Source: Deltaproteobacteria bacterium | GTDB lineage: Bacteria; Myxococcota; Kuafuiibacteriia; Kuafuiibacteriales; Kuafuiibacteriaceae | Assembly: GCA_040218735.1 (NCBI GenBank) | Contig: JAVJQW010000023.1 | Coordinates: 64,001-128,000, forward strand | Direction: 5' to 3' | DNA length: 64,000 nt | Part shown: one piece after another, positions 21,729 through 40,135 of the stretch | How positions within the stretch are numbered: the first letter of the stretch is position 1 | Layout of the letters: every line of letters begins with the position of its first letter | Position numbers and translations under genes: made by a program | The notes under the pieces: model-generated | Told to the model about the DNA's origin: nothing | Seen by the model: only the letters and a program-made list of their open reading frames with translations | The model's database searches: none

Positions 21729-21738
21729 CGACGCAAAT

Positions 21739-21754
21739 CGCACGGGCCGTGCCA
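21739..21754 (-). promoter_or_regulatory. Sigma54 (-24/-12) promoter
   Basis: Minus strand TGGCACGGCCCGTGCG: GG-N10-GC spacing with TGGCACG. Confidence 0.6.
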
Positions 21755-21769
21755 TGCTGACGTCGAGCG

Positions 21770-22117: not shown

Positions 22118-22178
22118 CGCTCCACCGGCTAGACCCAGCTGGTGATCACTCGCGGCACCTCCTAGTCTCGGCGACACG

Positions 22179-23162
22179 ATGGCCGAGACCACCGCGATTC
22201 GAATCCACGAGACGGGCGGGCCCGAAGCGCTGCGCGTCGAGACGATCGAAGTCGGCGCGCCGGGCGCAGGTGAAGCGCAGATCCGGCACACCGCGATCGG
22301 CGTGAACTTCATCGACACCTACCACCGCAGCGGCCTGTATCCGCTCCCGCGCATGCCGCACGGGCTCGGGCAGGAGGCCGCGGGCGTCGTGGAGGCGGTT
22401 GGCGAGGGGGTCACGGAGGTCGCGGTCGGCGATCGCGTCACGTACTTCGGCGGAGGCCCGGGCTCGTACTGCGGCCTGCGCAACGTGAAGTCACACCTGC
22501 TCATCCAGCTCCCGGACGCCGTGTCCGACGAGGTCGCGGCGGCTTCGCTGCTGAAGGGGATGACGGTGGAGTATCTCGTCCGCCGGACCTTCCCGCTGCA
22601 ACGCGGTCAGACGGTGTTGTGGCACGCGGCGGCGGGGGGCGTCGGTCTCATCGCCTGTCAGTGGCTGCGGCACCTCGGTGTCGAGATGATCGGCACCGTG
22701 AGCTCCGACGAGAAGGCGGCGCTCGCCGCGGAGAACGGGTGCACCCACCCGATCGTCTACACGCGCGAAGACTTCGTCGAACGCACGAAGGCGATCACCG
22801 ACGGCGCGGGCGTCCCGGTGGTCTACGACTCGGTCGGGCGCGACACGTTCGAGCGTTCGCTGAAGTGCCTCGCGCGGCGCGGAACGTTCGTGGGCTTCGG
22901 GAACGCGTCCGGCAAACCGGACCTGTTCGACCTCGCGAAGCTCGCCCAGGGCGGCTCGCTGTACGCGACCCGGCCGACGTTGTTCGACTACGTCGCCACG
23001 CGCGAGGAGCTGCTCGAATCGTCCGGCGCCCTGTTCGACGTCATCGCGAGCGGCGCCGTGAAGATCGACATCCGGCAGCGCTTCCCCCTCGCCGAGGCCG
23101 CGGAAGCGCACCGCGCGCTGGAGTCGAGGGCGACGACGGGGTCGACTGTGTTGGTTCCGTAG
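22179..23162 (+). CDS. qor: NADPH:quinone oxidoreductase (zeta-crystallin/MDR)
   Basis: AIGVNFIDTYHRSGLY, HAAAGGVG, VYDSVG, FGNASG, HRALESRATTGS. Confidence 0.93.
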   Translation: MAETTAIRIHETGGPEALRVETIEVGAPGAGEAQIRHTAIGVNFIDTYHRSGLYPLPRMPHGLGQEAAGVVEAVGEGVTEVAVGDRVTYFGGGPGSYCGLRNVKSHLLIQLPDAVSDEVAAASLLKGMTVEYLVRRTFPLQRGQTVLWHAAAGGVGLIACQWLRHLGVEMIGTVSSDEKAALAAENGCTHPIVYTREDFVERTKAITDGAGVPVVYDSVGRDTFERSLKCLARRGTFVGFGNASGKPDLFDLAKLAQGGSLYATRPTLFDYVATREELLESSGALFDVIASGAVKIDIRQRFPLAEAAEAHRALESRATTGSTVLVP

Positions 23163-23166
23163 CGGT

Positions 23167-24315
23167 TCAGGACTTCCAGAGGCGTCTGGACGCGATCGCT
23201 GCGCCCTCGGCGACGGCGGCGAGCTTGCCCCAAACGATCTCCGGTTCGACGGCGGCCTGTCCGACCCACGTGCCGAAGCCGCAGTCACTCCCGGCCATCA
23301 CACGCTCGCGCCCGACGCGGGTGGCGTAGCGCTCGATGCGCTGGGCGATGAGCTCGGGGTGCTCGATGAAGTTCGACTTCGACTCGATGACGCCGGGGAT
23401 GAGGACGAAGTCGTCGGGGAGCGCGACGTCGTCGAACACGACGTACTCGTGGGCGTGTCGCGGGTTCGCGGCTTCGAACGCGATGCCGGAGACCTTCGCG
23501 CGGAAGACGACGTCGAGGATGTCGCGGATCGGCACGTCGCAGTGGTGCGGTCCGTCGTAGTTGCCCCAGCACAGGTGAATGCGCGCTTGCTCGCGCGGGA
23601 CGTCCTGCAGCGCGTGGTTCAACGCGTCGACGTGCATCGCGACGCGGCTCTTGAAGTCCGGGAGATCGAGCTCGCGGTACATCATGTGGCGACCCATCGC
23701 GAGGTCGGGGCAGTCGACCTGCACCATGAGGCCGGCCTTCGCGATCGCCTCGTACTCGAACCGCATCGCGTCCGCGACCGCGAACAAGTAGCGCTCGAAG
23801 TCGCCGTAGTACTGGTCGTGGAAGAAGAGCGTCACCACGCCGGGCGACGCCGCGGTGAGGAACTGGCCCGCCGCGCCACAGTCCTCGGAGGCAGCCTGCA
23901 GGTTGGCGATGTCCGCGTAGACCGAGTCGTGGTCGGCGACGGTGACTTCACCGTCGCAGCCGGGGGTCTTGCGGCGTGAACGACCAGGATCGCCGAACAC
24001 ACGCTGCGCCATCGTCGGGTACTCGACGAGGTCCTGGTACGGCACCGGCACGCTCTCCCCGCCGAAGCCCGTGAGACGATCCTTGATGTACGTCGCGTAG
24101 CTCGGCTTCGACATCTCGCCGTCGTTGACGATGTCGATCCCGGCCTTGCGTTGCTTCGCGACGATCTCTCGCACGGCGTCGCGGATGTCCGTGGCGAGGC
24201 GACCGCGGTCGACCGGCACACCCTCCTCCTTCGCGAACATCGTGCGAATGAGATCCTCGGGGCGAGGCAGGCTGCCGGTGTGAGTCGTGAGGATGCGGTC
24301 TTGGCTCAGGATCAT
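23167..24315 (-). CDS. Cobalamin-independent methionine synthase II / epoxyalkane:CoM transferase-like Zn thiol transferase
   Basis: ILTTHTGSLPRP, DIVNDGE, Zn ligands HLC(WGNY) and SDCGFGT. Single catalytic barrel, 382 aa. Confidence 0.9.
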   Translation of the reverse strand: MILSQDRILTTHTGSLPRPEDLIRTMFAKEEGVPVDRGRLATDIRDAVREIVAKQRKAGIDIVNDGEMSKPSYATYIKDRLTGFGGESVPVPYQDLVEYPTMAQRVFGDPGRSRRKTPGCDGEVTVADHDSVYADIANLQAASEDCGAAGQFLTAASPGVVTLFFHDQYYGDFERYLFAVADAMRFEYEAIAKAGLMVQVDCPDLAMGRHMMYRELDLPDFKSRVAMHVDALNHALQDVPREQARIHLCWGNYDGPHHCDVPIRDILDVVFRAKVSGIAFEAANPRHAHEYVVFDDVALPDDFVLIPGVIESKSNFIEHPELIAQRIERYATRVGRERVMAGSDCGFGTWVGQAAVEPEIVWGKLAAVAEGAAIASRRLWKS

Positions 24316-24968
24316 GCGTTGGGTCTCTCTGTAACGTTGCCGTGCAAGCTAGGTTGCGGCGCTCCCTCGACGATCGGGAGACAGTCTTCCGGCAGGGTGT
24401 CGGTGAATTCGTGTCCGCGCGCTTCGAGCTCCGTGAGGAAGCCGTCGAGGCGCTGCATGGCGTCCGGGAGGATGTCGTGCAGGACGACGACGGTGTGGGC
24501 TTGGCGGTCGGCGTCGGCGAGCGCGTTCGCAACCCAGCCTTCGGCGTCGAGCCAGTCGCCCGGCACCGAATTCCACAGCGCGCACGTGTAACCGCCGGCC
24601 CGGAGGAACTCGACGCTCGCCCCGGAGAAGAGGTGCGGCCCGAGCTTCCCGCCCCCGCCGAACGGACGGAACCACCGGGGCCCCGTCCATACACGATCGA
24701 GGAGCGCCTCGGTCCGACCGAGCTCCAGGGCGACGTGGTCTTCGCGCGCGTCGTCGCCGAGCGGCGTCTCGTGGCTGTACGAGTGATTGCCGAGGACGTG
24801 GCCGGCATCCCGAATCTGCCGCGCGAGGTCGAGCCCGCCCGGCGCGTCGAGGCACTTGCCGCAGACGAAGAACATCGCGGACGCGCGGTGACGCGCGAGC
24901 ACGTCGAGGACGTGCGGCGTCACCGCGGGATCCGGTCCGTTGTCGAAGGTGAGGGTGACTCGGCCCAT
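24312..24968 (-). CDS. CE4/NodB polysaccharide-deacetylase-family hydrolase, cytoplasmic, with atypical motifs
   Basis: TLTFDNGP, GNHSYSH, FRPFGG, DW, VVLHD; no signal peptide. Stop overlaps the next start. Confidence 0.88.
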   Translation of the reverse strand: MGRVTLTFDNGPDPAVTPHVLDVLARHRASAMFFVCGKCLDAPGGLDLARQIRDAGHVLGNHSYSHETPLGDDAREDHVALELGRTEALLDRVWTGPRWFRPFGGGGKLGPHLFSGASVEFLRAGGYTCALWNSVPGDWLDAEGWVANALADADRQAHTVVVLHDILPDAMQRLDGFLTELEARGHEFTDTLPEDCLPIVEGAPQPSLHGNVTERPNA

Positions 24969-24975
24969 GGACGGG

Positions 24976-25563
24976 TCAGGACGCCTCGGTGCGGAGCTTG
25001 CGGAACTTGTTGTTCGCTTCGGTCACGCCGGCCAGCCACTTCTTCAGATCTTCGTGCGCCGTCTGCGCGGCGGCTTCGAGGACCTCCTCGGACTTGTCGA
25101 CGCGCGAGGTGAGCTCGACCTGCATCCCGTTCGGGTCGTGCATGTACACGGAGTAGCAGTAGCCGTGATCGATCAGCATGCAGTCGACGCCAGCCGCTTC
25201 GACCTTCTCCTTGAACTTCAGGACGTCGTCCTTGGTGTCGACCTCGAGCGCGACGTGGTGGTCGAAGGGATCCTGATTCCCCTGGATGGCCGTCTCCTTG
25301 TAGAGGCCCTCCTGGAACTGGAAGAACGCGAGCGCGTTGCCATCGCCGAGCTCGAAGAACGCGTGCATATAGTTCGACGGCTTCTCCGTGACGGGGTCCG
25401 TCGTCTCCACGAAGACACCGATCAGCGGCATGCCGAGGAGGTCCTCCCAGAACTTGCGGGTCGCCTCCATGTCGTTGGTGCGGAACGCGTGGTGATGGAC
25501 GCAGCGGATCGGGTTGCTGGAGCGACGCTGCTCGGTTGTCTTGGAAATCGGCTTCGAAAGCAT
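24976..25563 (-). CDS. VOC/glyoxalase-bleomycin resistance-dioxygenase family protein
   Basis: VHHHAFRTND...FWEDLLG, YMHAFFELGDGNALAFF, HHVAL, SVYMHDPNGMQVE. ATG at 25563. Confidence 0.9.
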   Translation of the reverse strand: MLSKPISKTTEQRRSSNPIRCVHHHAFRTNDMEATRKFWEDLLGMPLIGVFVETTDPVTEKPSNYMHAFFELGDGNALAFFQFQEGLYKETAIQGNQDPFDHHVALEVDTKDDVLKFKEKVEAAGVDCMLIDHGYCYSVYMHDPNGMQVELTSRVDKSEEVLEAAAQTAHEDLKKWLAGVTEANNKFRKLRTEAS

Positions 25564-25592
25564 GAGTTGGTCTCCTAGTTCTCTTCGAAAAG

Positions 25593-26495
25593 TCAGGCGT
25601 GGTTCGCCGCGGCGGCGGCGACGGGTTGGTGGCCTTCGACGACCTCGTCGACGACCGGGTTGGACATCTCCCCGACGCCCTCGATCGCGACACGGCACGT
25701 CTCCCCCGCGCGCATGTAGCGCGGCGGGTTCCGCGCGTGGCCGATGCCGGAAGGCGTACCCATCGCGATGACGTCTCCGGGCTCGAGCACGAGCGCCTCG
25801 GACAACAGCGCGACGGTCTTGGCGACACCGAACACCATCTTGCCGGTGTCGCCGTCCTGCATGAGCTCGTCGTCGACGTGGGTCGTCATGCGGAGCCCGG
25901 CGGCGCCCGGGGGGAGCTCGTCGGGCGTGACGAGATCGGGTCCGAGCGCTCCGGTGCCGTGGAAGTTCTTGCCGATCGTCCACTGCGGCGTGCGGGTCTG
26001 GTAGTCGCGGATCGAGCCGTCGTTGAACACGGCGTAGCCGGCGACGTGATCGAGCGCGTCGGCTTCTGCGATGCGTCGGCCACCGCGCCCGATGACCACG
26101 GCGAGCTCGACCTCGAAGTCGAGTTTGTCGGACTCGGGGGGACGAAGCATGGGCTCGCCGTGTCCGATGAGCGACGAGGCGACGCGCGCGAACATCGCGG
26201 GGTAGTCGGGCACCGGAAGGCCGGCCTCCGCGGCGTGGTCGACGTCGTTGAGGCCGAGGCAGATGAACTTCGGCGGGCTCGGCACGAGCGGGCGGAAACC
26301 GAAGCCGGCGCCGACCGGGGCGGCGGACGACAGCGCGGCCGCGGCGCGCGCGCGCCAGTCTTGGCCGCCCGCGATGAGCTGTCCGACGTCGGTGCCGAGG
26401 CCGGGGTCGACCGCGGTCAGGTCGACGTACGCGCCGTCGGCGCGGCGCGCGGCGAGTCGGGGTCCTTGGGGAGTTCGTAGGGAGCTGAGGCGCAT
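25593..26495 (-). CDS. Fumarylacetoacetate (FAH) hydrolase family protein
   Basis: KFICLGLN, LDFEVELAVVIG, GYAVFNDGSIRDYQ, WTIGKNF, LEPGDVIAMGTPSGIG. Confidence 0.93.
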   Translation of the reverse strand: MRLSSLRTPQGPRLAARRADGAYVDLTAVDPGLGTDVGQLIAGGQDWRARAAAALSSAAPVGAGFGFRPLVPSPPKFICLGLNDVDHAAEAGLPVPDYPAMFARVASSLIGHGEPMLRPPESDKLDFEVELAVVIGRGGRRIAEADALDHVAGYAVFNDGSIRDYQTRTPQWTIGKNFHGTGALGPDLVTPDELPPGAAGLRMTTHVDDELMQDGDTGKMVFGVAKTVALLSEALVLEPGDVIAMGTPSGIGHARNPPRYMRAGETCRVAIEGVGEMSNPVVDEVVEGHQPVAAAAANHA

Positions 26496-26512
26496 CGTGG
26501 GTGCTTTCCGAT

Positions 26513-26529
26513 AAAATGTCGGCAAAAAT
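26513..26529. promoter_or_regulatory. Putative GntR/FCD operator (AAAATGTCGGCAAAAAT)
   Basis: Imperfect copy of the palindrome at 27299-27314, placed just downstream of the leftward promoter. Confidence 0.6.
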
Positions 26530-26534
26530 ACGAA

Positions 26535-26574
26535 TTGACGACGAAACCGTAGAGCCGTACTTTCGCACTGTCAA
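26535..26574. promoter_or_regulatory. Overlapping divergent sigma70 promoters
   Basis: Plus: TTGACG (26535) N17 TACTTT (26558) toward gntR. Minus: TTGACA (26574-26569) N17 TACGGT (26551-26546) toward the FAH operon. Confidence 0.65.
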
Positions 26575-26580
26575 CCGACC

Positions 26581-27285
26581 ATGCCGCCGAACGCCGACGA
26601 CGCCCGCACCGACGCCACCGTCGTGACCCGCCGACTCCGCGCGGAGATCGTGGAGGGGGTGGTCCCCCCGGGGTCGAAGCTGAAGCTCGTCCCCCTCGCG
26701 CAGCGCTACCAAGTCGGACGTGGCCCGCTCCGCGAGGCCGCCTGTCGGCTCGCGGCGGAGGGGTTGGTGCTGATCGAGGACCAGCGCGGTTTCCGCGTCG
26801 CCCCCATCTCCCGCACGGACCTCATCGACGTGACGCGCACCCGCCAGCGGATCGAGGCGCTCGCGCTCCGTGACGCGATCCTACACGGCGACGACGAGTG
26901 GGAGGGCAAGGTCCTGGCCGCGCTCCACGTGCTGGAGCGCGTGTCCTCGCCGGACGCTTCGGAGGCGCGCCGCGCCCAGTTCCAAGAGCGGCACCAGGCG
27001 TTCCACGACATCCTTTGCGCACCCGGGCCGTCCGCCTACATCCGGCAGTTCCGCGACACCCTCTACGCGCACAGCGAGCGCTACCGTTGCCTCGCGGCCG
27101 ACCGCTACATCCAGCAGATCACGCACCGCGACATCGCGGCCGAGCACGAAGCCCTCGCTCGCGCCGCGCTCGACCGCGACGCGGACCTGGCGTGCCGACG
27201 CCTCGAGAACCACCTCGAGCGCACCCTGGAGACGCTGCTCGACGGCTACCCGATCCTCTTCGGCGAGGCCGAGGGCGCCGCCTGA
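26581..27285 (+). CDS. GntR family (FCD domain) transcriptional regulator
   Basis: LRAEIVEG..PPGSKL..LAQRYQVGRGPLREA..RLAAEGLV, RGFRVAP; FCD H..FH and AEHEAL. Confidence 0.94.
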   Translation: MPPNADDARTDATVVTRRLRAEIVEGVVPPGSKLKLVPLAQRYQVGRGPLREAACRLAAEGLVLIEDQRGFRVAPISRTDLIDVTRTRQRIEALALRDAILHGDDEWEGKVLAALHVLERVSSPDASEARRAQFQERHQAFHDILCAPGPSAYIRQFRDTLYAHSERYRCLAADRYIQQITHRDIAAEHEALARAALDRDADLACRRLENHLERTLETLLDGYPILFGEAEGAA

Positions 27286-27298
27286 GGCGCAGCTCGGA

Positions 27299-27329
27299 AT
27301 TTTGTCGACAAAATATTGGTTTGCCGACA
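27299..27329. promoter_or_regulatory. Putative GntR operator: perfect 16-bp palindrome ATTTTGTCGACAAAAT plus second site TTTGCCGACA
   Basis: Palindrome at 27299-27314 and second site at 27320-27329; AT-rich island upstream of yceI. Confidence 0.7.
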
Positions 27330-27410
27330 CGACGCTTGAGTGCGGACGACGTTGGTGGGAGGCTCCGTCCGTCCCTCATGAGACGACCGTTCCGGGAGAA
27401 CGATTCCAAA

Positions 27411-27992
27411 ATGAAGAAGCAGATCAAGACACAGCTCACCACCCTCGCCCTCGCAAGCGGACTCGCGTTCGCTACCGTCGCCGCGCCGAACGCCGCGACC
27501 GCCGCCGAGTTCGACATCGATTCGGGCCACACGTTCGTGGTCTTCAACGTCGGACACTTCGGCGTCGGCAAGGCCTACGGCATGTTCCTCAAGACGACGG
27601 GGAGCTTCGACACCTCGGCCAACAAACTCGACGTCACCATCGACGCCAACAGCGTCTTCACCGGCGACAAGAAGCGGGACGACCACCTCAAGGGCCCCGA
27701 CTTCTTCAACGCGAAGCAGTTCCCGAAGATCACCTTCAAGAGCAAGAAGGTCGCCGCGAAGGGCAACAAGCTCACGATCACCGGCGACCTCAGCATCAAG
27801 GGCAAGACCCAGAGCGTCACGTTCGAGATGACGAAGATCGGCGAAGGCAAGGATCCCTTCGGCAACATCCGCGCGGGCTACGAAGGCAAGCTGACGATCA
27901 ACCGAATGGACTTCGGCATGAACTACATGCCGGACGGCCTCTCGAAGGACGTCACCCTCGCGCTCGCCGTCGAGGGCATCAAGAAGAAGTAG
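27411..27992 (+). CDS. YceI family periplasmic lipid/polyisoprenoid-binding protein
   Basis: Signal peptide, IDSGHT, IDANSVFTG..KRDDHLKGPDFFNAKQFP.ITF, GDLSIKG, INRMDFGM. Confidence 0.93.
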   Translation: MKKQIKTQLTTLALASGLAFATVAAPNAATAAEFDIDSGHTFVVFNVGHFGVGKAYGMFLKTTGSFDTSANKLDVTIDANSVFTGDKKRDDHLKGPDFFNAKQFPKITFKSKKVAAKGNKLTITGDLSIKGKTQSVTFEMTKIGEGKDPFGNIRAGYEGKLTINRMDFGMNYMPDGLSKDVTLALAVEGIKKK

Positions 27993-27996
27993 ACCG

Positions 27997-28899
27997 ATGC
28001 TCCTCGCGCTCGTCCTCTCCGTCGTCGCGCCCGCGGTCGTCGCGGTCGTGCTCCTCGCGGTCGGTCACCGACCTTGGGGAGAGATGAAGGACGGGCGCTG
28101 GTCCCTCGCGCTCGCGATCCCCGCCTGCGCGTTCGCCGCCTACTTCGCCGTGCGCGGCGCCCCCGCCTTCCCGCCGACGGACGCCGGCGTCTGGCCTCTC
28201 TGGATCGGCATCCTCGCCGCGGCCCTCGCCATCCTCGAGTCGAAGGTCGAGTTACCCCGCGTCGCACGCGGCGTGGCGTGGCTCGCACTCGCGTTCGTCA
28301 CCGCGTACCTCGTTTCGCGTCCACGCATCGAGTTCGCGTGGGACACCGGCGGCACCGTCGCGTGGCTCTTCGGCGCGACGCTCGCGATCGCGGTCGTGTG
28401 GGTCGCGCTCGAGGTTCGCGCGGAGCGCGTCACGGGCTCCGCCGTCCCCCTCGCAATGACAATCTGGGGCGCCAGCGTCGCGACGGTGCTCGGCCTCTCC
28501 GGCACGGCGCTCCTCGCGCAGACCGCGGGCGGCGTCGCTGCGGCGCTCGGCGTCGCGACCGCGCTCGGCGTGTGGCGCCAGTCGCTCCCCGTCGCGCGCG
28601 CGATCGTCGGACCGAGCGTGATCGTGCTGGGCGGTCTGTTACTCGGCGGCGTGCACTACGCCGACGTCGGCTTCGCGAGCGTCGGCCTCGTCGTATTCGG
28701 CGCCGTGCTCGTCGGGCTACTCTCCTTGCCCGCGCTCTCCACGGCGGGCCTCCGCACCACCGCCACGCTGGGTATCGTCGTTCTCATCGCGAGCGGCGCC
28801 GCGGTCATGACCACGGTGTGGCCCGCAGACGACGCGGCTGCAGATTCAGCATCCACTGAAGCGAACGACGACTCGGACTACGGCTACGGATACGACTGA
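27997..28899 (+). CDS. Polytopic membrane protein (about 9-10 TM), function unknown
   Basis: Continuous hydrophobic helices and an acidic DDSDYGYGYD tail; starts 4 bp after yceI. Confidence 0.8.
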   Translation: MLLALVLSVVAPAVVAVVLLAVGHRPWGEMKDGRWSLALAIPACAFAAYFAVRGAPAFPPTDAGVWPLWIGILAAALAILESKVELPRVARGVAWLALAFVTAYLVSRPRIEFAWDTGGTVAWLFGATLAIAVVWVALEVRAERVTGSAVPLAMTIWGASVATVLGLSGTALLAQTAGGVAAALGVATALGVWRQSLPVARAIVGPSVIVLGGLLLGGVHYADVGFASVGLVVFGAVLVGLLSLPALSTAGLRTTATLGIVVLIASGAAVMTTVWPADDAAADSASTEANDDSDYGYGYD

Positions 28900-28994
28900 G
28901 TCCGAAGCTGCTCCGACATTGTCCGTCCCATGTCGCCGACGTAGGCGCGGCGCCGCGTTGCTGCCGCCCAAGGCCCACGCTAGACCCGAACGAC

Positions 28995-31900: not shown

Positions 31901-34900
31901 GACGAACATCGGCCACCTCGAGATGGCCGCCGGAGCGATCGGCCTGATTCGCATCGTGCTGTCCGTCGAGCGCGCGGAGATCACACCGAACGTCGGACTC
32001 ACGCAGCTCAACCCGCACATCGAAGCGGCGAACGCCGCTGTCACCTTCCCGGTGCGCTCCATACCTTGGACCGCACCGCGGCGCGTCGCGGGCGTGAGCT
32101 CGTTCGGATTCAGCGGAACGAACGGCCACGTCATCGTCGAGTCCACGCCGGAGGAGCTCATCGAACGCAGCGACGTCCGCTCGCCGTGGGAGACCTGCTT
32201 CGTCCCGATCTCCGCGCCGACCGACTCCGGCCTGCGCGCCCTCGCGGGGCGCCTCGGCGAGCACCTCGAAACGCACCCCTCGACGCGCCTCCCGGACTTC
32301 ATGTTCACGATCGGCGCGGGGCGAAGCCACGGCTTCCGACACCGCGCCGCTATCCGCGCGAAGGATCGCGAAGAGCTCACCCACGCGCTCGCGACGCTCG
32401 CCGACGGCGAGGAACACAAGACGGTCCTGCGTGGGCACGGTCCCGGCCAACGCCCCGGGAAGGTCGCGCTGATGTTCACCGGGCAAGGCGCCCAGTACGT
32501 GTCGATGGGGCGCGAGCTCTACGCCAAGAACGCCGTGTTCCGGCGCGCGCTCGACGCGTGCCAGGAAGCGGGCCGCCCGTTCCTCGACCGACCGCTCCTC
32601 GACGTCATGCACGGCGAAGGCGACGGCCCGATCGCCGAGACCGAGTGGACCCAACCCACCGCCTTCGCGGTGAGTTACGCGCTCGCCGAGTTGTGGCGCT
32701 CGGTCGGCGTCGAACCCGAGGCGGTCATCGGCCACAGCATCGGTGAGTACGTCGCCGCCTGCCGCGCCGACGTCATGGATCTCGAGAGCGCGATGCGCTT
32801 GGTCGCCGCGCGCGGACAACTCATGCAGCGCCTCCCCGCGGGCGGCGCGATGGCGTCCATCTCCGACGCACCCGACGTCGTCGCGCAGACGATCCGCGAC
32901 ACCAACAGCGCCGCCGTCATCGCCGGTTACAACGGCCCACGATCCACCGTCGTGTCGGGCCCCGAAGCCGCCGTGGACGCGCTCGTCGAAGCGCTCACCT
33001 CCAGGTCCGTGAAGGCGACCAAGCTGAAGGTCTCGCACGCGTTCCACTCCCCCTTGATGGAGCCGATGCTCGACGCGTTCCGCGAGGTCGCCGACCAGGT
33101 CCGCTTCCGCCCCGCGTCGATCCCCGTTGCGTCGAACGTCACCGGGCGCCTCTACGAGACCGGGTGGGCGCCCGACGCCAAGTACTGGGTCGACCACATC
33201 CGCTCCGCGGTTCGTTTCCAGCCCGGGCTCGAGGCGCTCTACGCCGACGGCGCGCGCATCTTCGTGGAAGCGGGCCCGCACCCCGTGCTCCTCGGCCTGG
33301 GGCGCTCGTTCATCGAAGACGCCGCGTGTGTATGGTCGCCGTCCCTCCGCCGCAGCGCCGGCGAAGAACGCACGTTCCTGCAGAGCGCCGCGGAGCTGTA
33401 CGCCGCAGGCGTCGAGCTCGACTTCGAGCAGCTCCTCGCCGGCGACGGCGTGCGCCGCATCCCCCTGCCCTCGTACCCGTTCGAGCGCAAATACTACTGG
33501 CCGAAGGTCGACGCGAAGGCCGCGTCGAGCGGGGGACGACCGATCCAGCACCCGCTCGTCGTCGAAGCCAGCGACGCACCGCCGCTCGGGATGCGCTGCC
33601 GCATCGATCTCGCCTCGGAGCACACCGCGTACCTCGAGGACCACCAGGTGCACGACGTCCCGGTCTTCCCGGCGACGGGCTACGTCGAGGCGGCGATCGC
33701 CGCCGTGGGTGCAGTATTCGAGAGCGACGTGCGCCAGCTCGAGGACGTCGAGCTGATGCACCCGCTGCGAATCGCCGACGACAAAGAGGTCTACGTGATC
33801 GTGTCGACCGAGTCCGCGGACCGCCCCGCGTTCTCCGTCGTGTCCGGCGTAAAGGCGGACCGCAAGCAGTGGACGACACACTGTCGCGGCGTCGCCGTCC
33901 TCACACCGCCGAACGAACCGGAGCGCGCGCGCCTGTCGCGGCTGCGCGAGCCGATGGTCCACGACGTCGATCCCGACGCGCTCTACGGCTTCCTCGACGC
34001 GATGGGGCTCGACTACCAAGCCGCGTTCCAGAACGTGACCGAGCTCGGCCGCGCCGCCGACGGGCGCCAGTCCCTCGGGCGCGTCAAACTCTCGCAGAGC
34101 GAAGCCGTCGATGCGAAGGACTACGCGGTGCACCCGGCGCTCCTCGACGCCGCCCTGCACTGCCTCGCGACACCGACCGACGAAGCGAGCCCGGACGCCG
34201 AGATGCCGGTGCGCATCGACCGACTCGTCGTCCACCGCGGCGGCGAGCGTGAAGCGTGGGTCCACACCCAACGACGCGACGACGACGCGATGAACGTGAC
34301 GTTGATCGATCCGGACGGCGAGATCATCGCGGAGCTGACCGGGCTGCACACCGCGACGGTGAGTCGCGCGCTGCTCGAGAAGATGGTCGGCGCCGAGAAA
34401 CCCGAAATGATCTACGCGCCGACCTGGCAGGAGACGCAGGCGGGTGAGTCCAAGGATCGACGCTGGATCGTGATCGGCGACGCGGCCTACGCGAACGAGC
34501 TCGGGGCGAAGGCCGTGTCGGTCGACGACGGCTTCGCGGCGCTCGACGCCGCGTTGGAAGACGTGGACGGTGTGCTCGATCTTCGTGCGCTCGGTCTGAC
34601 GGATGCAGACGCGCCACCGCCGTCCGTCCTCGCCGCGAACGTCGCGCGACTCGAGCTCGTCAAACACCTCCTCGAACGAAACGAGAAGCTCCACCTCGTC
34701 CTCGCGACGCGCGGAGCGACGCGCATCGAGAGCGGGGAGCGCGTCCTTCCGTTGCAAGCTGCCTTGCTCGGACAGGCGCGGACGATGATCGGTGAAGCCG
34801 TCGGCGTAGCCGTGTCCGCGATCGACCTCGAAGACGCCGAGCTCTCCCCCGCGCAGGCCGTCGAACAGCTACGGCGCGCGCTGACGGTGACCGAGCCCGA

Positions 34901-37900
34901 GGTCGCGTGTCGACAGGATCGTCTCTACGTCCCGCGCGTCGACAAGTGGACTAAGCAACGTGCGTTGACGATCCCCGAGGGGGAGTCGTTCGAGCTCGTC
35001 ACGCGCGCCGCGGGCATCCTCGAGAACCTGGAGCTCGTCGAGCGCGAGCGTCGCGCTCCGAAGGACGACGAAGTCGAGCTTGAGGTTACCGCGGTCGGGC
35101 TCAACTTCCGCGACGTCATGAACGCGATGGGCGCCTACCCCGGCGGCGTCGAGCCAATCGGCTCGGAGTGCGCCGGCGTCGTGACCGCGGTGGGATCCGC
35201 GGTGAAGTCGGTGAAGGTCGGCGACGCGATCGTCTGCCTCGTCGCGGACGGCGCGTTCCGCCGCTACGCGATCGCCCAGGAGACCTTCGTGGCTCCGGTG
35301 CGCGCGCCTGTGGCGCTGACGGGGGCGGTGACGCTCCCGATCACGATGATGACGGCGCTCCACGGCTTGGAGACCTTGGCCGACCTGAAGCCGGGTGAAG
35401 TCGCGCTGATTCACGCGGGCGCCGGTGGTGTCGGCCTCGCCGCAATCCAGCTTGCGCTGCGAACGAAGGCGAAGATCATCGCGACCGCGGGGAGCCCGCG
35501 CAAACGCGACTACCTGCGGCGCCTCGGCGTCGAGCACGTGTTCGACTCGCGGAGCCTCTCTTTCGCGGATGACGTTCGTGCGCTCGTCGGCGAGCGCGGC
35601 GTCGACCTCGTCCTGAACTCACTCGCCGGTGAGTTCATCGACGCGAGCCTCGCCCTCCTCCGCGAAGGCGGACGCTTCGTGGAGATCGGCAAGGTGCGCG
35701 TGCTGAAGCCGGACGAGGTCCCGGCGGGGGTGCGTTACTTCCACTTCGACACCGGCCTCGAGTGCCTCGAGAAGCCGGGGCTGTTCGCCGAGATGTGGGC
35801 GACCATCGAGTCGCGCATCGCGGAGGGCTCGGTACGCCCGCTCGCGCACGAGACGTACCGCCTCGAAGCGACCGTCGACGCGTTCCGCACGATGGCGCGC
35901 GGCGCCCACGTCGGGAAGAACGTCATCGTCGTCGACCCGGACTACGAGGTCGGCCCGCGCGAAGACGGCACCTACCTGGTCACCGGCGGAACCGGAGCGC
36001 TCGGACTGACCTGTGCGGCGTGGCTCCTCGAACGCGGAGCCGGGCACGTCGTGCTCATGAGCCGGCGCGGCGTCACCCCCGAGACCGAGGCCGCCGTGCG
36101 CGACCTCGACCCGGACGGCCGCCGCGTCTCGGTGGTTCGCGGCGACACGTCGAGCGCCGACGACGTCACGCAGCTCGTCGCGGGGATCGAGAAACGGCAC
36201 CCGCCGCTGCGCGGTGTGCTGCACGCCGCCGGGCTCCTCCGCGACGGCATGGCCGCGTCGCAAGACGAGGGGACCTTCGCGGCGGTCTTCGCACCCAAGG
36301 TCGACGGGACGTTCCACCTCGGGCGCGCCACCGAGTCGTGTGACCTCGACTTCTTCGTCGTGTTCTCGAGCATCGCGGCGCGCTTCGGAAACCCGGGGCA
36401 GAGCAACTACGCCGCCGCAAACGCGTACATGGACGGCTGGGTCGCGCAGGCCCGCGAAGCCGGCCGCGCCGCGCAGACGATCGCGTGGGGTCCGTGGGGT
36501 GAGATCGGCATGGCCGCCGACGAAGCGGCCCTCCGCGGCCTCACCGCGGCGGGCCTCGTCCCGATCGCTCCCGCCGATGGCGTCGCCGCGCTCGCGCAGC
36601 TGATCCGCGGCGGCCGCGAGGCCTCCGTCGTCCTCGGCGTCGACTGGTCCAAGTTCGTCGACGGCCCGCTCGGCGCGCTGCCGGTGTGGTCGAAGCTTAC
36701 GGCGACACGACAGAAGAAGACGTCCGCGCGCGCGAAGGACGGCGCGCTCGACGCCGCGCGCGCCGCGAGCGGCGAGGCGCGGCAAGCCGCCGTCGTCGAC
36801 TTCCTCCGCGACCAGGTGCGCTCGCTCCTCGGCGCCGAGGACGACTACACGATCGACGAGGCGGCCGAGCTGCGCGACGTCGGTGTCGACTCGCTCATGG
36901 CCACCGAGCTGAGGAACCGCCTGTCGACCGCGGTCGGCGCGTCGCTGCCCGGCGCGGCCATGATGGAGCACCCGACGCTCGGCGGCCTCGCCGGATACCT
37001 CGGCGGCATGCTCGGCGAGGGGCACAGCGAAGAGCCTCGGTCCCAAGCCCCTCAGCCCGAGGCACCGACCGCGACGGCAGCGCTGCAGGTGGACATCGTC
37101 GACCTCACCGCCCCCGCCGCACCGCTGTTCTGTTTCCCGCCCGCGGGCGCCGACGCGGCCGTGTTCACGCCGCTCGCTGCGCGGCTGAAACCGTGGCGCA
37201 TCGCCGTCGTGGAGGCCGCGACCTCCGCGTCGAACGAGGCCCCGACCTCGCTCGACGCGCTCGTCGCCGCCGCGATCGGAGCGGTGCGCGCCGTGCAGCC
37301 GCGAGGTCCGTACCGTTTGTTCGGCCACTCCTTCGGCGGGATGATCGCGCAGGAGGTCGCCGCCGCGCTCGAACGTGACGGCGACGAGGTCGCGTTCCTC
37401 TGGAAACTCGAAGCGCCGGTGAGTTTCTCGGACGACCCGCTGCGCGAGGTTGGACAGGCGCGAGCGACGAGTGGCTTCGCGCAGCGCGTCGGGGTCGCGG
37501 CGGCGGACCTCGACGGCGTCTTCCGCGAGATGGGCGCGTTCGCCGTGGCCTTCGACGCCATGGTCTTCGACAGGCTCACGACCATGAGCCCCGAGACGTT
37601 CCAGCGAATGTTCCCGCGCGTGCGTGACCTCGAAGGCGACGACTTCACCCGCGAGCTCGCCCGGTGGACTCACGAAGAAGGCTGGCTCCCCGCTGCGCTC
37701 TCGCCCGACGTTTGTGTCGACCGGGTCCGCAAGGTCCGCCAGACACTCGCGTGGGTCGCGGGCTACCGGCCGTCGTCGGTGAACGCACGACAAGTCACGG
37801 GGCGCGCGACGGTCGGCGCACCGTTCGGTACCGGCGACTGGAGCGACTACGCCACCGGCGCCTTCGAACAGATCGACGTCGAGGGCGACCACATCTCCTG

Positions 37901-37970
37901 CGTCATGTCGCCGGGGATCGACGCCGTCGCCCGCAGCCTCGACGCGCTGCTGCGCGAGGCAGGAGTTTGA
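28995..37970 (+). CDS. Type I polyketide synthase: acyl-CoA-ligase/adenylation-ACP-KS-AT-DH-ER-KR-ACP-TE
   Basis: A domain: FTSGSTGTPKG, YGLSE, SGDL, GRIKD. ACP: LGMES. KS: DTACSS, EAHGTGT, NIGHLE. AT: GHSIG, HAFH. DH: LEDHQVHDVPVFP, HPALLDA. ER: HAGAGGVG. KR: GGTGALG, LRD, NYAAAN. ACP: GVDSL. TE: GHSFG, GDH. Confidence 0.96.
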   Translation: MDTGAGLHLTKMMHEVVREDPSRPRLIDATSGRAISGDALYQTSARFASLLVQRGLAVGSRVLTLLPDGVDLVAVYAGIWQAGGVLVPQHPNTPAAQLTEMFRLVAPRVVVTSPEGAERVRAAAEDAHFEIIVLTPPDATPAHPTPDERTPVLGDFFALIEDERPLETYHGGGDLLAIIGFTSGSTGTPKGVVHAHDSLGAAQYYLRDRKPVRTVWGFPLDSVGGTSLLLSQLHTGYTICFPKSLNPVDILDAIQGHRCNVIFTGPTVLSAIIAFRDVDRYDLSTMHRWEYAGGPLGDQLARELVSGKLPGRLHCTYGLSELVILTRTIDSEPLKIGSIGRPYGEGTAVRIVKTDGTEAGVDEVGELLAQGPSLFRGYYQRPDETAEIIQNNWLHSGDLVRRDADGDIFIVGRIKDLIIRGGKNVVPSDVEAVVRRHPAVLDVAVVGVENELLGEEVVAFTVLRPETEDAEKTVAEIDALCEADLHPGQRPRVRLLDELPSNDRNKVDKFALKRLGRDGFDAGEETELTATIRKAPAKTQLGLVTREVRQLIAEHLEEPESSIREEALLTELGMESRHAVELSQHLGARFGLRVNATFVFNHPTVHAISTELTERITSSARVKKAAKQTEGLDDDPVVVVGLGVRLPGGIENEDDFWLALQTASDLRSPFPEDRYDVAALTAPESANVATRGGFIDDIQEFDAGLFRISPIEAAAMDPNQRLLLETCWAALENAGIAPERLAGTRSGALFGIGNPDFLMDFLPSPAFAGGIGGMHSVAVGRISFVLGLRGLSFALDTACSSGLVACHLAARAIRSGDLDLALVGGVNVALSDLPWLNLSAMGALSPTSQCHTFDASADGYARGEGCGVLVLMRRSKAIRDGHTIRAVVSGSAVNHDGFSTAITAPNGTAQQELIVEALTDAGLEPSDVGYVEAHGTGTPLGDPIEIAAITKVLAGHYRQTEPLRITSVKTNIGHLEMAAGAIGLIRIVLSVERAEITPNVGLTQLNPHIEAANAAVTFPVRSIPWTAPRRVAGVSSFGFSGTNGHVIVESTPEELIERSDVRSPWETCFVPISAPTDSGLRALAGRLGEHLETHPSTRLPDFMFTIGAGRSHGFRHRAAIRAKDREELTHALATLADGEEHKTVLRGHGPGQRPGKVALMFTGQGAQYVSMGRELYAKNAVFRRALDACQEAGRPFLDRPLLDVMHGEGDGPIAETEWTQPTAFAVSYALAELWRSVGVEPEAVIGHSIGEYVAACRADVMDLESAMRLVAARGQLMQRLPAGGAMASISDAPDVVAQTIRDTNSAAVIAGYNGPRSTVVSGPEAAVDALVEALTSRSVKATKLKVSHAFHSPLMEPMLDAFREVADQVRFRPASIPVASNVTGRLYETGWAPDAKYWVDHIRSAVRFQPGLEALYADGARIFVEAGPHPVLLGLGRSFIEDAACVWSPSLRRSAGEERTFLQSAAELYAAGVELDFEQLLAGDGVRRIPLPSYPFERKYYWPKVDAKAASSGGRPIQHPLVVEASDAPPLGMRCRIDLASEHTAYLEDHQVHDVPVFPATGYVEAAIAAVGAVFESDVRQLEDVELMHPLRIADDKEVYVIVSTESADRPAFSVVSGVKADRKQWTTHCRGVAVLTPPNEPERARLSRLREPMVHDVDPDALYGFLDAMGLDYQAAFQNVTELGRAADGRQSLGRVKLSQSEAVDAKDYAVHPALLDAALHCLATPTDEASPDAEMPVRIDRLVVHRGGEREAWVHTQRRDDDAMNVTLIDPDGEIIAELTGLHTATVSRALLEKMVGAEKPEMIYAPTWQETQAGESKDRRWIVIGDAAYANELGAKAVSVDDGFAALDAALEDVDGVLDLRALGLTDADAPPPSVLAANVARLELVKHLLERNEKLHLVLATRGATRIESGERVLPLQAALLGQARTMIGEAVGVAVSAIDLEDAELSPAQAVEQLRRALTVTEPEVACRQDRLYVPRVDKWTKQRALTIPEGESFELVTRAAGILENLELVERERRAPKDDEVELEVTAVGLNFRDVMNAMGAYPGGVEPIGSECAGVVTAVGSAVKSVKVGDAIVCLVADGAFRRYAIAQETFVAPVRAPVALTGAVTLPITMMTALHGLETLADLKPGEVALIHAGAGGVGLAAIQLALRTKAKIIATAGSPRKRDYLRRLGVEHVFDSRSLSFADDVRALVGERGVDLVLNSLAGEFIDASLALLREGGRFVEIGKVRVLKPDEVPAGVRYFHFDTGLECLEKPGLFAEMWATIESRIAEGSVRPLAHETYRLEATVDAFRTMARGAHVGKNVIVVDPDYEVGPREDGTYLVTGGTGALGLTCAAWLLERGAGHVVLMSRRGVTPETEAAVRDLDPDGRRVSVVRGDTSSADDVTQLVAGIEKRHPPLRGVLHAAGLLRDGMAASQDEGTFAAVFAPKVDGTFHLGRATESCDLDFFVVFSSIAARFGNPGQSNYAAANAYMDGWVAQAREAGRAAQTIAWGPWGEIGMAADEAALRGLTAAGLVPIAPADGVAALAQLIRGGREASVVLGVDWSKFVDGPLGALPVWSKLTATRQKKTSARAKDGALDAARAASGEARQAAVVDFLRDQVRSLLGAEDDYTIDEAAELRDVGVDSLMATELRNRLSTAVGASLPGAAMMEHPTLGGLAGYLGGMLGEGHSEEPRSQAPQPEAPTATAALQVDIVDLTAPAAPLFCFPPAGADAAVFTPLAARLKPWRIAVVEAATSASNEAPTSLDALVAAAIGAVRAVQPRGPYRLFGHSFGGMIAQEVAAALERDGDEVAFLWKLEAPVSFSDDPLREVGQARATSGFAQRVGVAAADLDGVFREMGAFAVAFDAMVFDRLTTMSPETFQRMFPRVRDLEGDDFTRELARWTHEEGWLPAALSPDVCVDRVRKVRQTLAWVAGYRPSSVNARQVTGRATVGAPFGTGDWSDYATGAFEQIDVEGDHISCVMSPGIDAVARSLDALLREAGV

Positions 37971-37972
37971 CG

Positions 37973-38764
37973 ATGGGACGCACCAACCGCTTTCAATTCT
38001 GGCTCAACGGCGACCCGCCCAAGAGCCTCGGCACCACCGCCAACGGTGACGTCGAACGCCCGGCGCACGATCGGTGGATGGCGCGCCCCCTCGACCGCCA
38101 GCTCGAAGACGAGCAGCTCACAGCGCTCGTCCCGGCGATCGTCGAAGGCGACTTCCCCGGCCTGTCGCTCTCCGGCTTCCGGCGCCTCACCTCGGGAGCG
38201 GTCGAAGCCCTCGCGCCGTGCACTCGACTCCGGCACCTCGACCTCTCGGGCACGAAGGTCGACGACGGCGCGGCGCCCGCGCTCGCCGCGCTCGACAACC
38301 TCGCGACACTCACCCTCGCGGGCACACGCGTTGGTCTCGAAACCGCGCGCGCCGTCGCGCGGCTCCCGAAGCTCGAGGCCCTCGACCTCGGCTGGACGCG
38401 CGTCCCCGAGGCCGGGATCGTCGAGCTCGCGGGGTGTTCGTCGCTGACGTCGCTCCGACTCTGCGGCCTCTCGGTGCGCGCCGACGCGATGAAGGTGATC
38501 GCATCGCTCCCCGCGCTCCGTTCGCTCGACCTCCAGGAGGCGCGCTTCGACGACCTCTCCGCGCTCAGCGCGTGCACGCAGCTCGAATCGCTGTCGATCG
38601 GCTACACCAGCGTCGATGACGACGCGGTCGAAGGCCTCGCGAAGCTCACCGGCCTCCGCACGCTCATGGTGCGCGCGACGCGGTTGACCGACGCGGCCTT
38701 GGATCGACTGAGCCGAGCGCTCCCCGCGCTCGGTGCGAAGAACGCGGCGGGGCTCCAGCGCTGA
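37973..38764 (+). CDS. Leucine-rich repeat protein
   Basis: Repeated LxxLxLxxTxV units (LRHLDLSGTKV, LATLTLAGTRV, LEALDLGWTRV...). ATG lies 2 bp after the PKS stop. Confidence 0.88.
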   Translation: MGRTNRFQFWLNGDPPKSLGTTANGDVERPAHDRWMARPLDRQLEDEQLTALVPAIVEGDFPGLSLSGFRRLTSGAVEALAPCTRLRHLDLSGTKVDDGAAPALAALDNLATLTLAGTRVGLETARAVARLPKLEALDLGWTRVPEAGIVELAGCSSLTSLRLCGLSVRADAMKVIASLPALRSLDLQEARFDDLSALSACTQLESLSIGYTSVDDDAVEGLAKLTGLRTLMVRATRLTDAALDRLSRALPALGAKNAAGLQR

Positions 38765-40135
38765 TCAGAACCAAGCGTGGAGTTGAACGAGGGTCTCGTT
38801 GTTGAAGGCCTTCGCGACCTCGTCGTTGAAACGCACCTGCGCGATCACTTCGATCGACGTGAACGGGTGCGCGACGATGCCCACGGTGTATCGATGGATG
38901 TGGTCGTCGGCGTTCGAGATGTCCGGGTCCATCCAGTCGTAGCGCATCTGGAGGAACAGCCCCTCCACCACCAGGAAGTCCACCTCATGGAACGAAGTCA
39001 GCGAGGTCTTCGACCCCGCCGCGTCGTCCGTGGTGTGTCTCAGATCGTACTCACCGAGATAGACGACCGGCGCGACCCCGACGGGTGACCACGGATGCCT
39101 GGCCTCGTGTAAGTTCAGCGCCCAGTTCGCGCCGACCCACAGGTCACTCCTCCCGTCGCGCGACTCGAACATGAACGAACCTCCGGCTTGCCACCACAAG
39201 TCACGATAACCGGCGGTGAGCGCGGTCCCGAAGCCGTTGTCGAAGTCGAGCACGGAGAAGCGCTCCGTCCCCGTCCTCGACCGAGTCACCGGTGGCCCGG
39301 GTATGAACAGCGAGGCGTTTGCGTAGAGGTAGTTGGGATTGAGCCCGACCTCGAACCCGGTGACTTGCCGTTCGTTGTCGAAGGTTTGGTTCTGCCGAAT
39401 GAAGGCCGTGTGATCGTCGAGCCTCCACCCGAACGCCGGGAGGAACTGACCGAGCTTTCCGTAGAGTTGATACGGCAAGTTGTCGAACAGCGCCCAGTAC
39501 TCACGAACGAACGCGCGATCCACGAACCCATCGAACTCTTCGGACCGGCTCCCGAGGAACCCACCGTTGACCAGGAACGTCAGCCGCCCGCCCGTCGGGT
39601 CACCCGGGTTGTACGGTGACGCCGCGAGGTAGAGGTCGGTCTGCATCGGGAAGAACGCGTTATCGGCATCCTCGGGGAAGTAACCCATCACCCGGACGTC
39701 GAAGCCGACCCGGAAGTACGGCGTCGGATCCATGCCCGCGTAGCGCGCGGCGCTCAGCGGACCGGGCGGCTCCGAGTGCGGGGGGACCTCCGCGGTGACG
39801 TCCTCGTCTTCTCCGGGCATCGACGCCGGGCGCGACGACGGCGCGTTCGGCTGCCAGTCGTCCGTCGGACGCGGACCGAACATCGCGAGGATCTCACGCC
39901 CGTAGAAGACACCAGCGGTGTTCCGCATCCCGCCGCCCGTGGGGTTCACGTGGCACGTGCTGCAGTTCAGGCTGCACTTCCGCTCCGGGAGCTCCGGGTT
40001 CTTCCAGTCGAACGGCTCGACGTGGCAGTTGTCGCACTGTCGCGCGGACAGCGCCGCGAACTGGGGCAACGCAAACGCCGTGGACGGAAGCGCGAGCGCG
40101 ACGACGACGAGGAGGAGGGGCAGACGACGAATCAT
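38765..40135 (-). CDS. Diheme c-type cytochrome fused to an outer-membrane beta-barrel (Cyc2-like architecture)
   Basis: Signal peptide, LPQFAA...CDNCH...CSTCHVNPTGGG, amphipathic beta-strands and C-terminal QLHAWF. Confidence 0.75.
   Translation of the reverse strand: MIRRLPLLLVVVALALPSTAFALPQFAALSARQCDNCHVEPFDWKNPELPERKCSLNCSTCHVNPTGGGMRNTAGVFYGREILAMFGPRPTDDWQPNAPSSRPASMPGEDEDVTAEVPPHSEPPGPLSAARYAGMDPTPYFRVGFDVRVMGYFPEDADNAFFPMQTDLYLAASPYNPGDPTGGRLTFLVNGGFLGSRSEEFDGFVDRAFVREYWALFDNLPYQLYGKLGQFLPAFGWRLDDHTAFIRQNQTFDNERQVTGFEVGLNPNYLYANASLFIPGPPVTRSRTGTERFSVLDFDNGFGTALTAGYRDLWWQAGGSFMFESRDGRSDLWVGANWALNLHEARHPWSPVGVAPVVYLGEYDLRHTTDDAAGSKTSLTSFHEVDFLVVEGLFLQMRYDWMDPDISNADDHIHRYTVGIVAHPFTSIEVIAQVRFNDEVAKAFNNETLVQLHAWF

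Follow-up and report, generated by a model that had tools for sequence, protein, structure and literature searches.

A conserved GntR/FCD regulon with probable aromatic-acid ring-cleavage enzymes, and the species-specific polyketide synthase cassette beside it

The window analysed here is a stretch of 64,000 nucleotides, G000:C9:64001-128000, from a genome (G000) of 11.6 Mb with about 69% G+C. Between positions 22179 and 38764 of this window lie a gene for a GntR-family regulator, a leftward operon running from an FAH-family hydrolase to a MetE-like protein, two rightward genes for a YceI-family protein and a membrane protein, and, further along the same strand, a large polyketide synthase (PKS) gene coupled to a gene for a leucine-rich repeat (LRR) protein. 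The subject of this report is the regulon around the GntR-family regulator and the relation of the PKS to it. The genes are as follows.

22179-23162, plus strand: qor, NADPH:quinone reductase (Pfam ADH_N/ADH_zinc_N; NF008024, 395.5 bits, cut-off 348)
23167-24315, minus strand: MetE-like protein (cobalamin-independent methionine synthase II family), 382 aa, last gene of the operon (PF01717), overlapping the CE4 stop by 4 nt
24312-24968, minus strand: CE4 (NodB-fold) deacetylase-like protein, core gene (PF01522, 67 bits)
24976-25563, minus strand: VOC-fold protein, 195 aa, core gene, probable ring-cleaving dioxygenase (PF00903; start codon set with the ribosome-binding site)
25593-26495, minus strand: FAH-family hydrolase, 300 aa, core gene and first gene of the leftward operon (PF01557, E = 6.6e-63, 212.7 bits)
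26581-27285, plus strand: GntR-family regulator with an FCD ligand domain, 234 aa (PF00392, 55.5 bits; PF07729, 49.7 bits)
27411-27992, plus strand: yceI, YceI-family periplasmic protein with a signal peptide (PF04264; NF002994, 149.7 bits, below cut-off)
27997-28899, plus strand: membrane protein, 300 aa, about 10 transmembrane segments by hydropathy, starting 4 nt past the yceI stop
28995-37970, plus strand: single-module, fully reducing type I PKS, 2991 aa, starting 95 nt past the membrane protein gene
37973-38764, plus strand: LRR protein, 263 aa (LRR Pfam families), translationally coupled to the PKS, its ATG lying 2 nt past the PKS stop

In the leftward operon, gaps of 29 nt between FAH and VOC and of 7 nt between VOC and CE4 are followed by the 4-nt overlap with the MetE-like gene. 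A 43-kb contig from another study's run spans 22000-40997 with 210 differences and 9 gaps relative to the window, and the junction between the membrane protein gene and the PKS is bridged by a 1.5-kb contig of a third study (28572-30077). Since these independent contigs span the arrangement, the gene order is real and is not an assembly artefact; contig 'joints' of mixed-metagenome origin, with sides of about 20 nt, were disregarded. An Rfam scan of 21000-41000 gave no match.

A search with the VOC protein of a phylum sample of 401 genomes, at a threshold of E<=1e-25, found its gene in 26. Synteny windows around these matches (3.5-kb loci, n=26, with 20-kb contexts for the core loci) show that FAH and GntR genes adjoin each other in 21 of the 26, the GntR/FCD gene being divergent from the FAH-VOC-CE4 side with an operator between them. 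CE4 directly follows VOC in 20 of these 21 loci, the exception being a relative from the same family (G018, locus L012), in which it follows the membrane protein gene. The MetE-like gene occurs in only three of the 26 VOC loci. The gene past the regulator varies as well: yceI and the membrane protein gene occupy this position in G000, in a same-genus relative (G001, 75% complete and fragmented; locus L013) and in G018, and an alpha/beta hydrolase with weak PcaD-like matches occupies that past the second site in G174 and G002. In G001, one side reads downstream gene, LytTR regulator, DUF2306-like gene, membrane protein gene, yceI and GntR, and the other FAH-VOC-CE4-MetE-like followed by qor.

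Both the winged-helix (PF00392) and the FCD (PF07729) domains of the regulator score above their Pfam cut-offs, which places the protein in the FadR/FCD subfamily. Regulators with an FCD domain typically sense carboxylates, and FadR/FCD operators are palindromes with a GT-N-AC core that lie near the regulator's own promoter. Three candidate sites were found at the locus.

26513-26528, unstranded: predicted operator O1 (AAAATGTCGGCAAAAA), 21-30 nt 5' of the FAH start codon, within the 85 bp that separate the divergent FAH and GntR genes
27300-27313, unstranded: predicted operator O2, a perfect palindrome, TTTTGTCGACAAAA, 15 nt past the GntR stop, with yceI beginning about 100 nt further on
27321-27329, unstranded: O3, a third site (TTGCCGACA), matching 9/10 core positions, 19 bp from O2

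The predicted operator WTGYCGRCAA, which has the GT-N-AC core, is present in the FAH-GntR divergent spacer of all 21 loci. In 20 of them it was recovered by script with at most one mismatch, and in the remaining one, that of G001, a counterpart of O1 was recognised by eye at the same position (ATGTCTGCAA / AAAATGTCTGCAAAAA); core columns 1-2, 4-5, 7 and 9 are invariant across these spacers. Within the window, TTGYCGACA gives four strand matches at three places (26517-26525, 27302-27311 and 27321-27329), against 0.68 expected, and four or more matches were reached in none of 100 shuffles. Across the 11.6-Mb genome, the 11-mer TGYCGRCAAAA gives six strand matches, three of which (at two places) fall at this locus, and the sole perfect copy of the 14-mer palindrome TTTTGYCGRCAAAA is that at 27300-27313. 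The other three 11-mer matches are non-palindromic half sites inside open frames or at their ends, and the regulon therefore looks local; the genome-wide operator search found no further members.

A second site, at or just past the GntR stop, is found in all 16 loci of family f9 and also in G000 and G001, as judged in the 20-kb contexts. The counterpart of O2 in G001 (TTTTGCCGACAAAA) lies in the same place, O3 is specific to G000 and is not conserved in G001, and G018, G002 and G004 carry the first site only. Since the two-site layout is kept across loci, a regulator flanked by its own sites is an old and conserved architecture. Control of the leftward FAH-VOC-CE4-MetE-like operon by the operators on both sides of GntR is supported, and yceI and the membrane protein gene are very probably under the same control, which would presumably take the form of repression. 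The gene content, operator conservation and synteny observed in these genomes show that the regulon is real and conserved, and that the MetE-like gene, yceI and the membrane protein gene are lineage-specific additions to its core. Just 5' of the GntR start codon (window 26566-26576) there is also a CTGTCAACC motif, conserved in G000, G001 (L013) and G018 (L012) and separate from the operator, which could be a promoter element or an extra binding site.

The best NCBIfam model for the regulator is that of CsiR, NF008576, which it matches with 155.1 bits against a cut-off of 218 and by that measure is not a CsiR. FadR-subfamily GntR/FCD regulators such as CsiR share with it the winged-helix and FCD domains, a palindromic GT...AC operator and a divergent, autoregulatory layout. 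Unlike CsiR, however, the protein here has other target genes, its score is below the cut-off, and a fixed second operator lies just past its own stop codon.

In a preliminary description of this stretch, all of the named genes had been placed where they are indeed found, apart from small corrections, and qor had rightly been said to abut the left end (22179-23162 on the plus strand, next to the MetE-like gene at 23167-24315 on the minus strand). The TTGYCGACA-type sites proposed there are also real, to judge from the shuffles and from their retention in related genomes, and their layout is as it had been given, with one before the leftward operon and the others before yceI.

Among solved structures, the closest relative of the VOC protein is PDB 9U42, with an E-value of 3.3e-21 for the single sequence and of 7.3e-22 for a profile of 21 orthologs. 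The next chain follows at 4e-9; in E-value, a gap of 12-13 orders of magnitude separates 9U42 from all glyoxalase and Fos chains. A Foldseek search with a predicted model of the VOC protein (mean pLDDT 69) points the same way, with 9U42 ranked first (E 7e-12, TM 0.64/0.72, about 28% identity). The PDB title of 9U42 describes a homogentisate 1,2-dioxygenase, glyoxalase-like, from Acinetobacter. A passage in PMC13572102, which cites Seo et al. 2025, likewise states that the glyoxalase-annotated gene in the homogentisate cluster of A. baumannii acts as a homogentisate 1,2-dioxygenase. Residues His23/24, His102/103, His133, Tyr135 and Glu150 of the VOC protein are invariant in the 21 orthologs.

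The FAH protein, which has the C-terminal FAA_hydrolase domain (PF01557), aligns over its full length with 6J57/6J5X (E 4.3e-52, its best solved match), and a passage in PMC13669639 identifies 6J5X as cgFPH1, a fumarylpyruvate hydrolase. It falls below all NCBIfam equivalog cut-offs, among them those for L-KDR hydrolase (185.8 against 500) and for the C-terminal part of HpaG (155 against 276). Because the VOC protein is nearest to 9U42 and the FAH protein is nearest to fumarylpyruvate hydrolase, the core most likely cleaves a hydroquinone-type acid. The simplest reading of the two sequences would be that the dioxygenase opens the ring of a 2,5-dihydroxy aromatic acid and that the hydrolase splits the resulting maleyl-/fumaryl-diketo acid, both the class of substrate and the order of the enzymes being what we infer.

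The Acinetobacter cluster that contains 9U42, as described in passages of PMC13572102, shares with the core a small VOC protein of about 180 aa adjoining an FAH-superfamily hydrolase within a regulated catabolic cluster, and it has in addition HPD, MaiA, FahA, ScoAB, AroP and an IclR repressor of its own. By contrast, the locus here has no HPPD, maleylacetoacetate isomerase or CoA-transferase; its regulator is of the GntR/FCD type, its hydrolase is nearer to fumarylpyruvate hydrolase, and CE4 is a fixed member. None of the genes that form the usual tyrosine/homogentisate context (HPPD, maleylacetoacetate isomerase and FahA) is adjacent to the VOC gene, and G000 gives no HPPD match above the cut-off. 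The canonical homogentisate pathway was rejected on the grounds that HPPD and the isomerase are missing here and that the canonical genes lie elsewhere in G174. With the gentisate pathway, represented by cgFPH1 and the NagK type (6J57, 6J5X), the FAH protein shares its C-terminal fold in an alignment that runs end to end, but neither a cupin gentisate dioxygenase nor a maleylpyruvate isomerase is found near the FAH gene here.

The third core protein, CE4, has peptidoglycan and xylan deacetylases as its PDB relatives. Motif 1 of a canonical CE4 protein is TFDDG; in all 21 orthologs of the protein here, FDNGP replaces this usual Asp-Asp form, and the His-His motif, HSxxH, is kept in all 21. Our guess is that CE4 sets the substrate free by de-acylation.

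The MetE-like protein, at 382 aa, is not a two-barrel MetE of about 750 aa, and its scores against the MetE equivalogs are all far below their cut-offs (TIGR01371, 22.7 against 930 bits; best model, 91.5 against 406). His-Cys-Glu-Cys is the set of Zn ligands of the Meth_synt_2 barrel, and H247, C249, E281 and C345 are invariant in 14 sequences of the MetE-like protein. The family is very large, with at least 8000 proteins at E<=1e-20; identities among the matches listed are 66-75%, and the named records are from Pseudomonadota. In 80 loci, mostly from Alpha- and Betaproteobacteria, a MetE-like gene adjoins VOC or CE4 in none and an FAH homolog in three, and no family occurs in more than 19 of these loci. 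As there is no steady neighbour, the neighbourhood gives no clue to function. The copy in G018, from the same family of organisms, is only 55% identical to the MetE-like protein of G000, which is thus closer to the listed Pseudomonadota homologs, and this suggests horizontal acquisition. In G018 there are in fact two MetE-like genes in tandem after VOC (L012:11614-12507 and 12546-13667), the first being shorter and a relative of the archaeal-type 'core MetE' (NF006589, 209 bits, below cut-off).

Orthologs of yceI were found in G001 (73%) and G018 (68%) only. The membrane protein has orthologs in the same two genomes (57% and 35%, respectively); it has no Pfam or NCBIfam match, and its matches in the ESM Atlas are all hypothetical proteins. 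Perhaps the two proteins bind or import a hydrophobic, quinone-like substrate. The qor gene is convergent with the last operon gene and, by gene orientation, belongs to a transcript of its own. Its adjacency is confined to this genus: an ortholog with 84% identity adjoins the operon in G001, and locus L012 of G018 gives no match.

The PKS has the domain order acyl/aryl-acid ligase-ACP-KS-AT(malonyl)-DH-ER-KR-ACP-TE. The catalytic motifs characteristic of such domains are intact, both in KS and AT (DTACSS796, HGTGT934, NIGH971, GHSIGE1246 and HAFH1348) and in DH, ER, KR, ACP and TE (H1550, GGVG2144, TGGTGALG2330, YAAAN2472, GVDSL2630 and GHSFGG2777), and the HAFH motif of AT is one that we take to indicate malonyl units. 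The best NCBIfam model for the ligase is that of long-chain-fatty-acid-CoA ligase, at 245 against a cut-off of 476, and among its PDB matches, ligases for fatty acids, aryl acids and malonate score about alike. In a search of 5.8 billion proteins, the best match of the loading part beyond its own 90% cluster has only 34% identity, the rest being adenylation domains of nonribosomal peptide synthetases, and the KS part is at most 49% identical to ordinary modular PKSs. A literature search by domain architecture gave no description of this arrangement in bacteria.

In its loading part, a ligase-ACP didomain fused to a single KS-AT module, and in its ACP-TE end, the PKS resembles the cyanobacterial olefin synthase, given in a passage of PMC11730487 as FAAL-ACP-KS-AT-KR-ACP-ST-TE. 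There is a likeness also to CoL-loaded modular PKSs, which have a ligase-ACP loading part and a KS-AT module. Compared with the olefin synthases of the Ols/CurM type, the PKS here has a full DH-ER-KR loop and no sulfotransferase, and a coupled LRR gene follows it; identity with that type was rejected because of the missing sulfotransferase domain and the presence of DH and ER.

The core was found in 20 other genomes without an ortholog of the PKS, and in G018, G004, G174, G344 and 12 further loci no PKS domain lies within the 20-kb locus. No PKS ortholog was found in the 40 relatives in which one was sought, and the loading didomain was found in none of the 400 other phylum genomes at E<=1e-60 (top three candidates per genome scored). 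The LRR gene is a single copy in G000, with one tblastn match at E<=1e-8, and is absent from the G001 and G018 loci. In G001, the slot between the membrane protein gene and the downstream gene is occupied by the DUF2306-like gene and the LytTR response regulator, with no PKS or LRR gene. Homologs of these slot genes lie together elsewhere in G000, at G000:C20:14356-18245 (DUF2306-like, 78%; LytTR, 55%), so that the slot has undergone rearrangement and not insertion only. At the flanks of PKS-LRR, no direct or inverted repeats were found, only GC-rich chance matches. Judged from these sequence comparisons, PKS-LRR is a species-specific orphan cassette in a variable downstream slot.

The explanation that we favour, and which we consider reasonably probable, is that two unrelated neighbours lie side by side here: a conserved GntR regulon for an aromatic acid, and a species-specific PKS-LRR cassette. 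The GntR/FCD repressor would bind the palindrome WTGYCGRCAA(AA) in the FAH-GntR divergent promoter region and also at a second operator just past its own stop, through which the variable downstream gene would be controlled. A hydroquinone-type aromatic acid, similar to homogentisate or gentisate, would be catabolised or detoxified by the products of the compact FAH-VOC-CE4 operon. Ring opening would fall to the VOC protein, on the model of the glyoxalase-like homogentisate dioxygenase of Acinetobacter, and the FAH-family enzyme would split the resulting maleyl-/fumaryl-diketo acid. CE4, as a peripheral de-acylase, would release the substrate with the help of the alpha/beta hydrolase in other genomes or of the MetE-like Zn enzyme here, and the acid would be the ligand sensed by the FCD domain. 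The MetE-like gene, yceI and the 10-transmembrane-segment membrane protein would be further recruits of the regulon in this genus. As to the PKS, its ligase would load some carboxylic acid, malonyl extension would give a saturated chain, which is the product that we infer, and TE would release it.

Several points weigh against this explanation. Within the 20-kb locus, PKS-like domains lie within 10 kb of three of the 20 other core loci, namely in G002 and in the related pair G223/G201. In G002 this is a reducing PKS (AT-DH-ER-KR-ACP), 31% identical, convergent, and set past an alpha/beta hydrolase, an unknown gene and an OmpA-family gene; in G223/G201, KS-KS genes are arrayed together and the AT stands separately. 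Only 1.6% of the G000 genome lies within 10 kb of a KS or AT, the other genomes with nearby PKS-like genes hold 8-37 KS domains, and a total of 3-4 of 21 loci, or about three independent events, somewhat exceeds chance, which we regard as a hint of a loose association, although the PKS-like genes concerned are non-orthologous (29-38% identity) and differ in type, position and orientation, and genomes that are related do not count as independent. Transcription from the yceI promoter may also read through the 95-nt gap into the PKS. On the side of the chemistry, the assignment of the substrate hangs on one solved homolog, with about 28-37% identity, and the Foldseek matches after 9U42 are glyoxalase I and the fosfomycin thiol transferases FosA/B/X. 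The cluster has no isomerase, HPPD or ring hydroxylase, and G174 has a canonical HppD-HmgA pair elsewhere, which makes homogentisate itself an improbable substrate there; what we propose for CE4 and the MetE-like protein is guesswork.

Of the alternatives, that which survives best is nevertheless doubtful. It holds that the foreign PKS-LRR pair has been captured by the regulon, being transcribed with yceI and the membrane protein gene from the O2/O3 promoter, such that the ligand of GntR would switch the PKS on. The PKS does lie on the same strand, 95 nt past the membrane protein gene; a scan of 26300-29200 gave no promoter call and no terminator between the two genes, and the fold of the gap is no stronger than that of shuffles (z = -0.39). 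The arrangement is moreover stable in strains from other studies. However, the gap tolerates indels between strains, as an untranslated spacer does, it contains no operator, and the genes in the corresponding slot of G001 are different ones, 275 nt from the membrane protein gene.

The second alternative concerns the chemistry, and we think it unlikely. The regulon would serve detoxification of a thiol or dicarbonyl type, with the VOC protein similar to glyoxalase I or FosA and the FAH protein an acylpyruvase or of the oxaloacetate-decarboxylase type; it would further assign alkylation of a thiol to the MetE-like Zn protein and hydrolysis of an ester or thioester to CE4. The structural neighbours of the VOC protein after 9U42 fit this view, as do its weak NCBIfam matches, which are to Fos and glyoxalase I models, the presence of FAHD1-type acylpyruvases among the PDB matches of the FAH protein, and a single database record (P0080) that labels a MetE-like homolog 'epoxyalkane--coenzyme M transferase'. 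Yet the lead of 9U42 over the glyoxalase and Fos chains is the 12-13 orders of magnitude noted above, and, according to its PDB title and the citing passage in PMC13572102, 9U42 is a dioxygenase for all its likeness to a glyoxalase. The MetE-like gene, for its part, is absent from 23 of the 26 VOC loci. A further counterpoint, to be treated as a lead only, is that the five VOC sequences of family f1 fit what we presume to be the extradiol-dioxygenase signature.

It is improbable, too, that the regulon is a hitherto undescribed funnel for substituted hydroquinone or quinone acids, in which the MetE-like protein, acting as a demethylase or in the processing of thiol adducts, CE4 (with its Asp-Asn motif) and the esterase would strip substituents, VOC and FAH would cleave the ring, and the same acid would, by read-through, switch on the PKS whose ligase loads it; if this were true, the cell would either burn the acid or build on it.

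The weakest alternative is a single GntR-controlled biosynthetic system, in which the operon makes or salvages an acid starter, the PKS activates and lengthens it, and the product is carried by YceI and the membrane protein; its co-location and co-orientation in G000, the nearly equal scores of the ligase against aryl-acid and fatty-acid ligases, with which an aromatic starter is compatible, and the reducing PKS-like genes near three of the 20 other core loci speak for it, but we judge it very improbable, as genomes that lack the PKS nevertheless retain the core, the operators, yceI and the membrane protein gene, no PKS ortholog was found in any search made, the PKS-like genes elsewhere are non-orthologous, convergent or set apart by unrelated genes such as OmpA, and the core enzymes have their closest relatives among catabolic enzymes of ring cleavage. 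This was the view put forward in the preliminary description. Of its GntR-controlled system, the regulon with operators on both sides of the regulator stands, and the notion that it is built around the PKS finds no support. Against membership of the PKS in the regulon speak the core of 20 other genomes, the absence of the loading didomain from the 400 and the other genes in the slot of G001. Since yceI and the membrane protein gene are kept in G001 and G018 without the PKS, they are not carriers specific to its product, as had been proposed. Co-occurrence of operon and PKS elsewhere, on which that view had been staked, was largely not seen in the phylum genomes searched, and the alternative that it had itself allowed, a PKS unrelated to the regulon, is the better-supported reading.

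A number of neighbouring features may be noted in their own right. The arrays in G223 and G201 (G223:C50:207546-227820, L135; G201:C29:318760-338980, L136) extend over about 20 kb, a few kb from the GntR/FAH-VOC-CE4 core, with genes that have two KS-like domains each, a 540-aa gene and a separate AT-like gene; each looks like a synthase of the secondary-lipid or polyene type. In the window, the gene 3' of LRR (38765-40600, minus strand) has no Pfam or NCBIfam match and an ortholog of 78% identity in G001. With a likely internal start (MIRRLPLLL...), a signal-peptide-like segment, two CxxCH motifs (CDNCH and CSTCH) and a long motif-free region, it may encode an uncharacterised haem-binding envelope protein. 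Upstream, a Ser/Thr protein kinase (18384-20603, plus strand), and downstream, a TPR protein with a peptidase MA-like region (41001-43286, plus strand), are typical of large myxobacteria-like genomes and unlinked to the regulon.

The analysis thus sets a real, conserved and testable regulon apart from the neighbouring gene on which it had seemed to centre. The regulon has an operator of defined sequence, two sites flanking the regulator gene and an invariable trio of enzymes. It would extend the recently recognised glyoxalase-like ring-cleaving dioxygenases beyond Acinetobacter and into another gene context, with an unusual CE4 variant, and the analysis draws attention to a very large MetE-like family. 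The PKS, which has no close relative in the databases searched, may be worth expressing, and is to be mined as a stand-alone gene pair.

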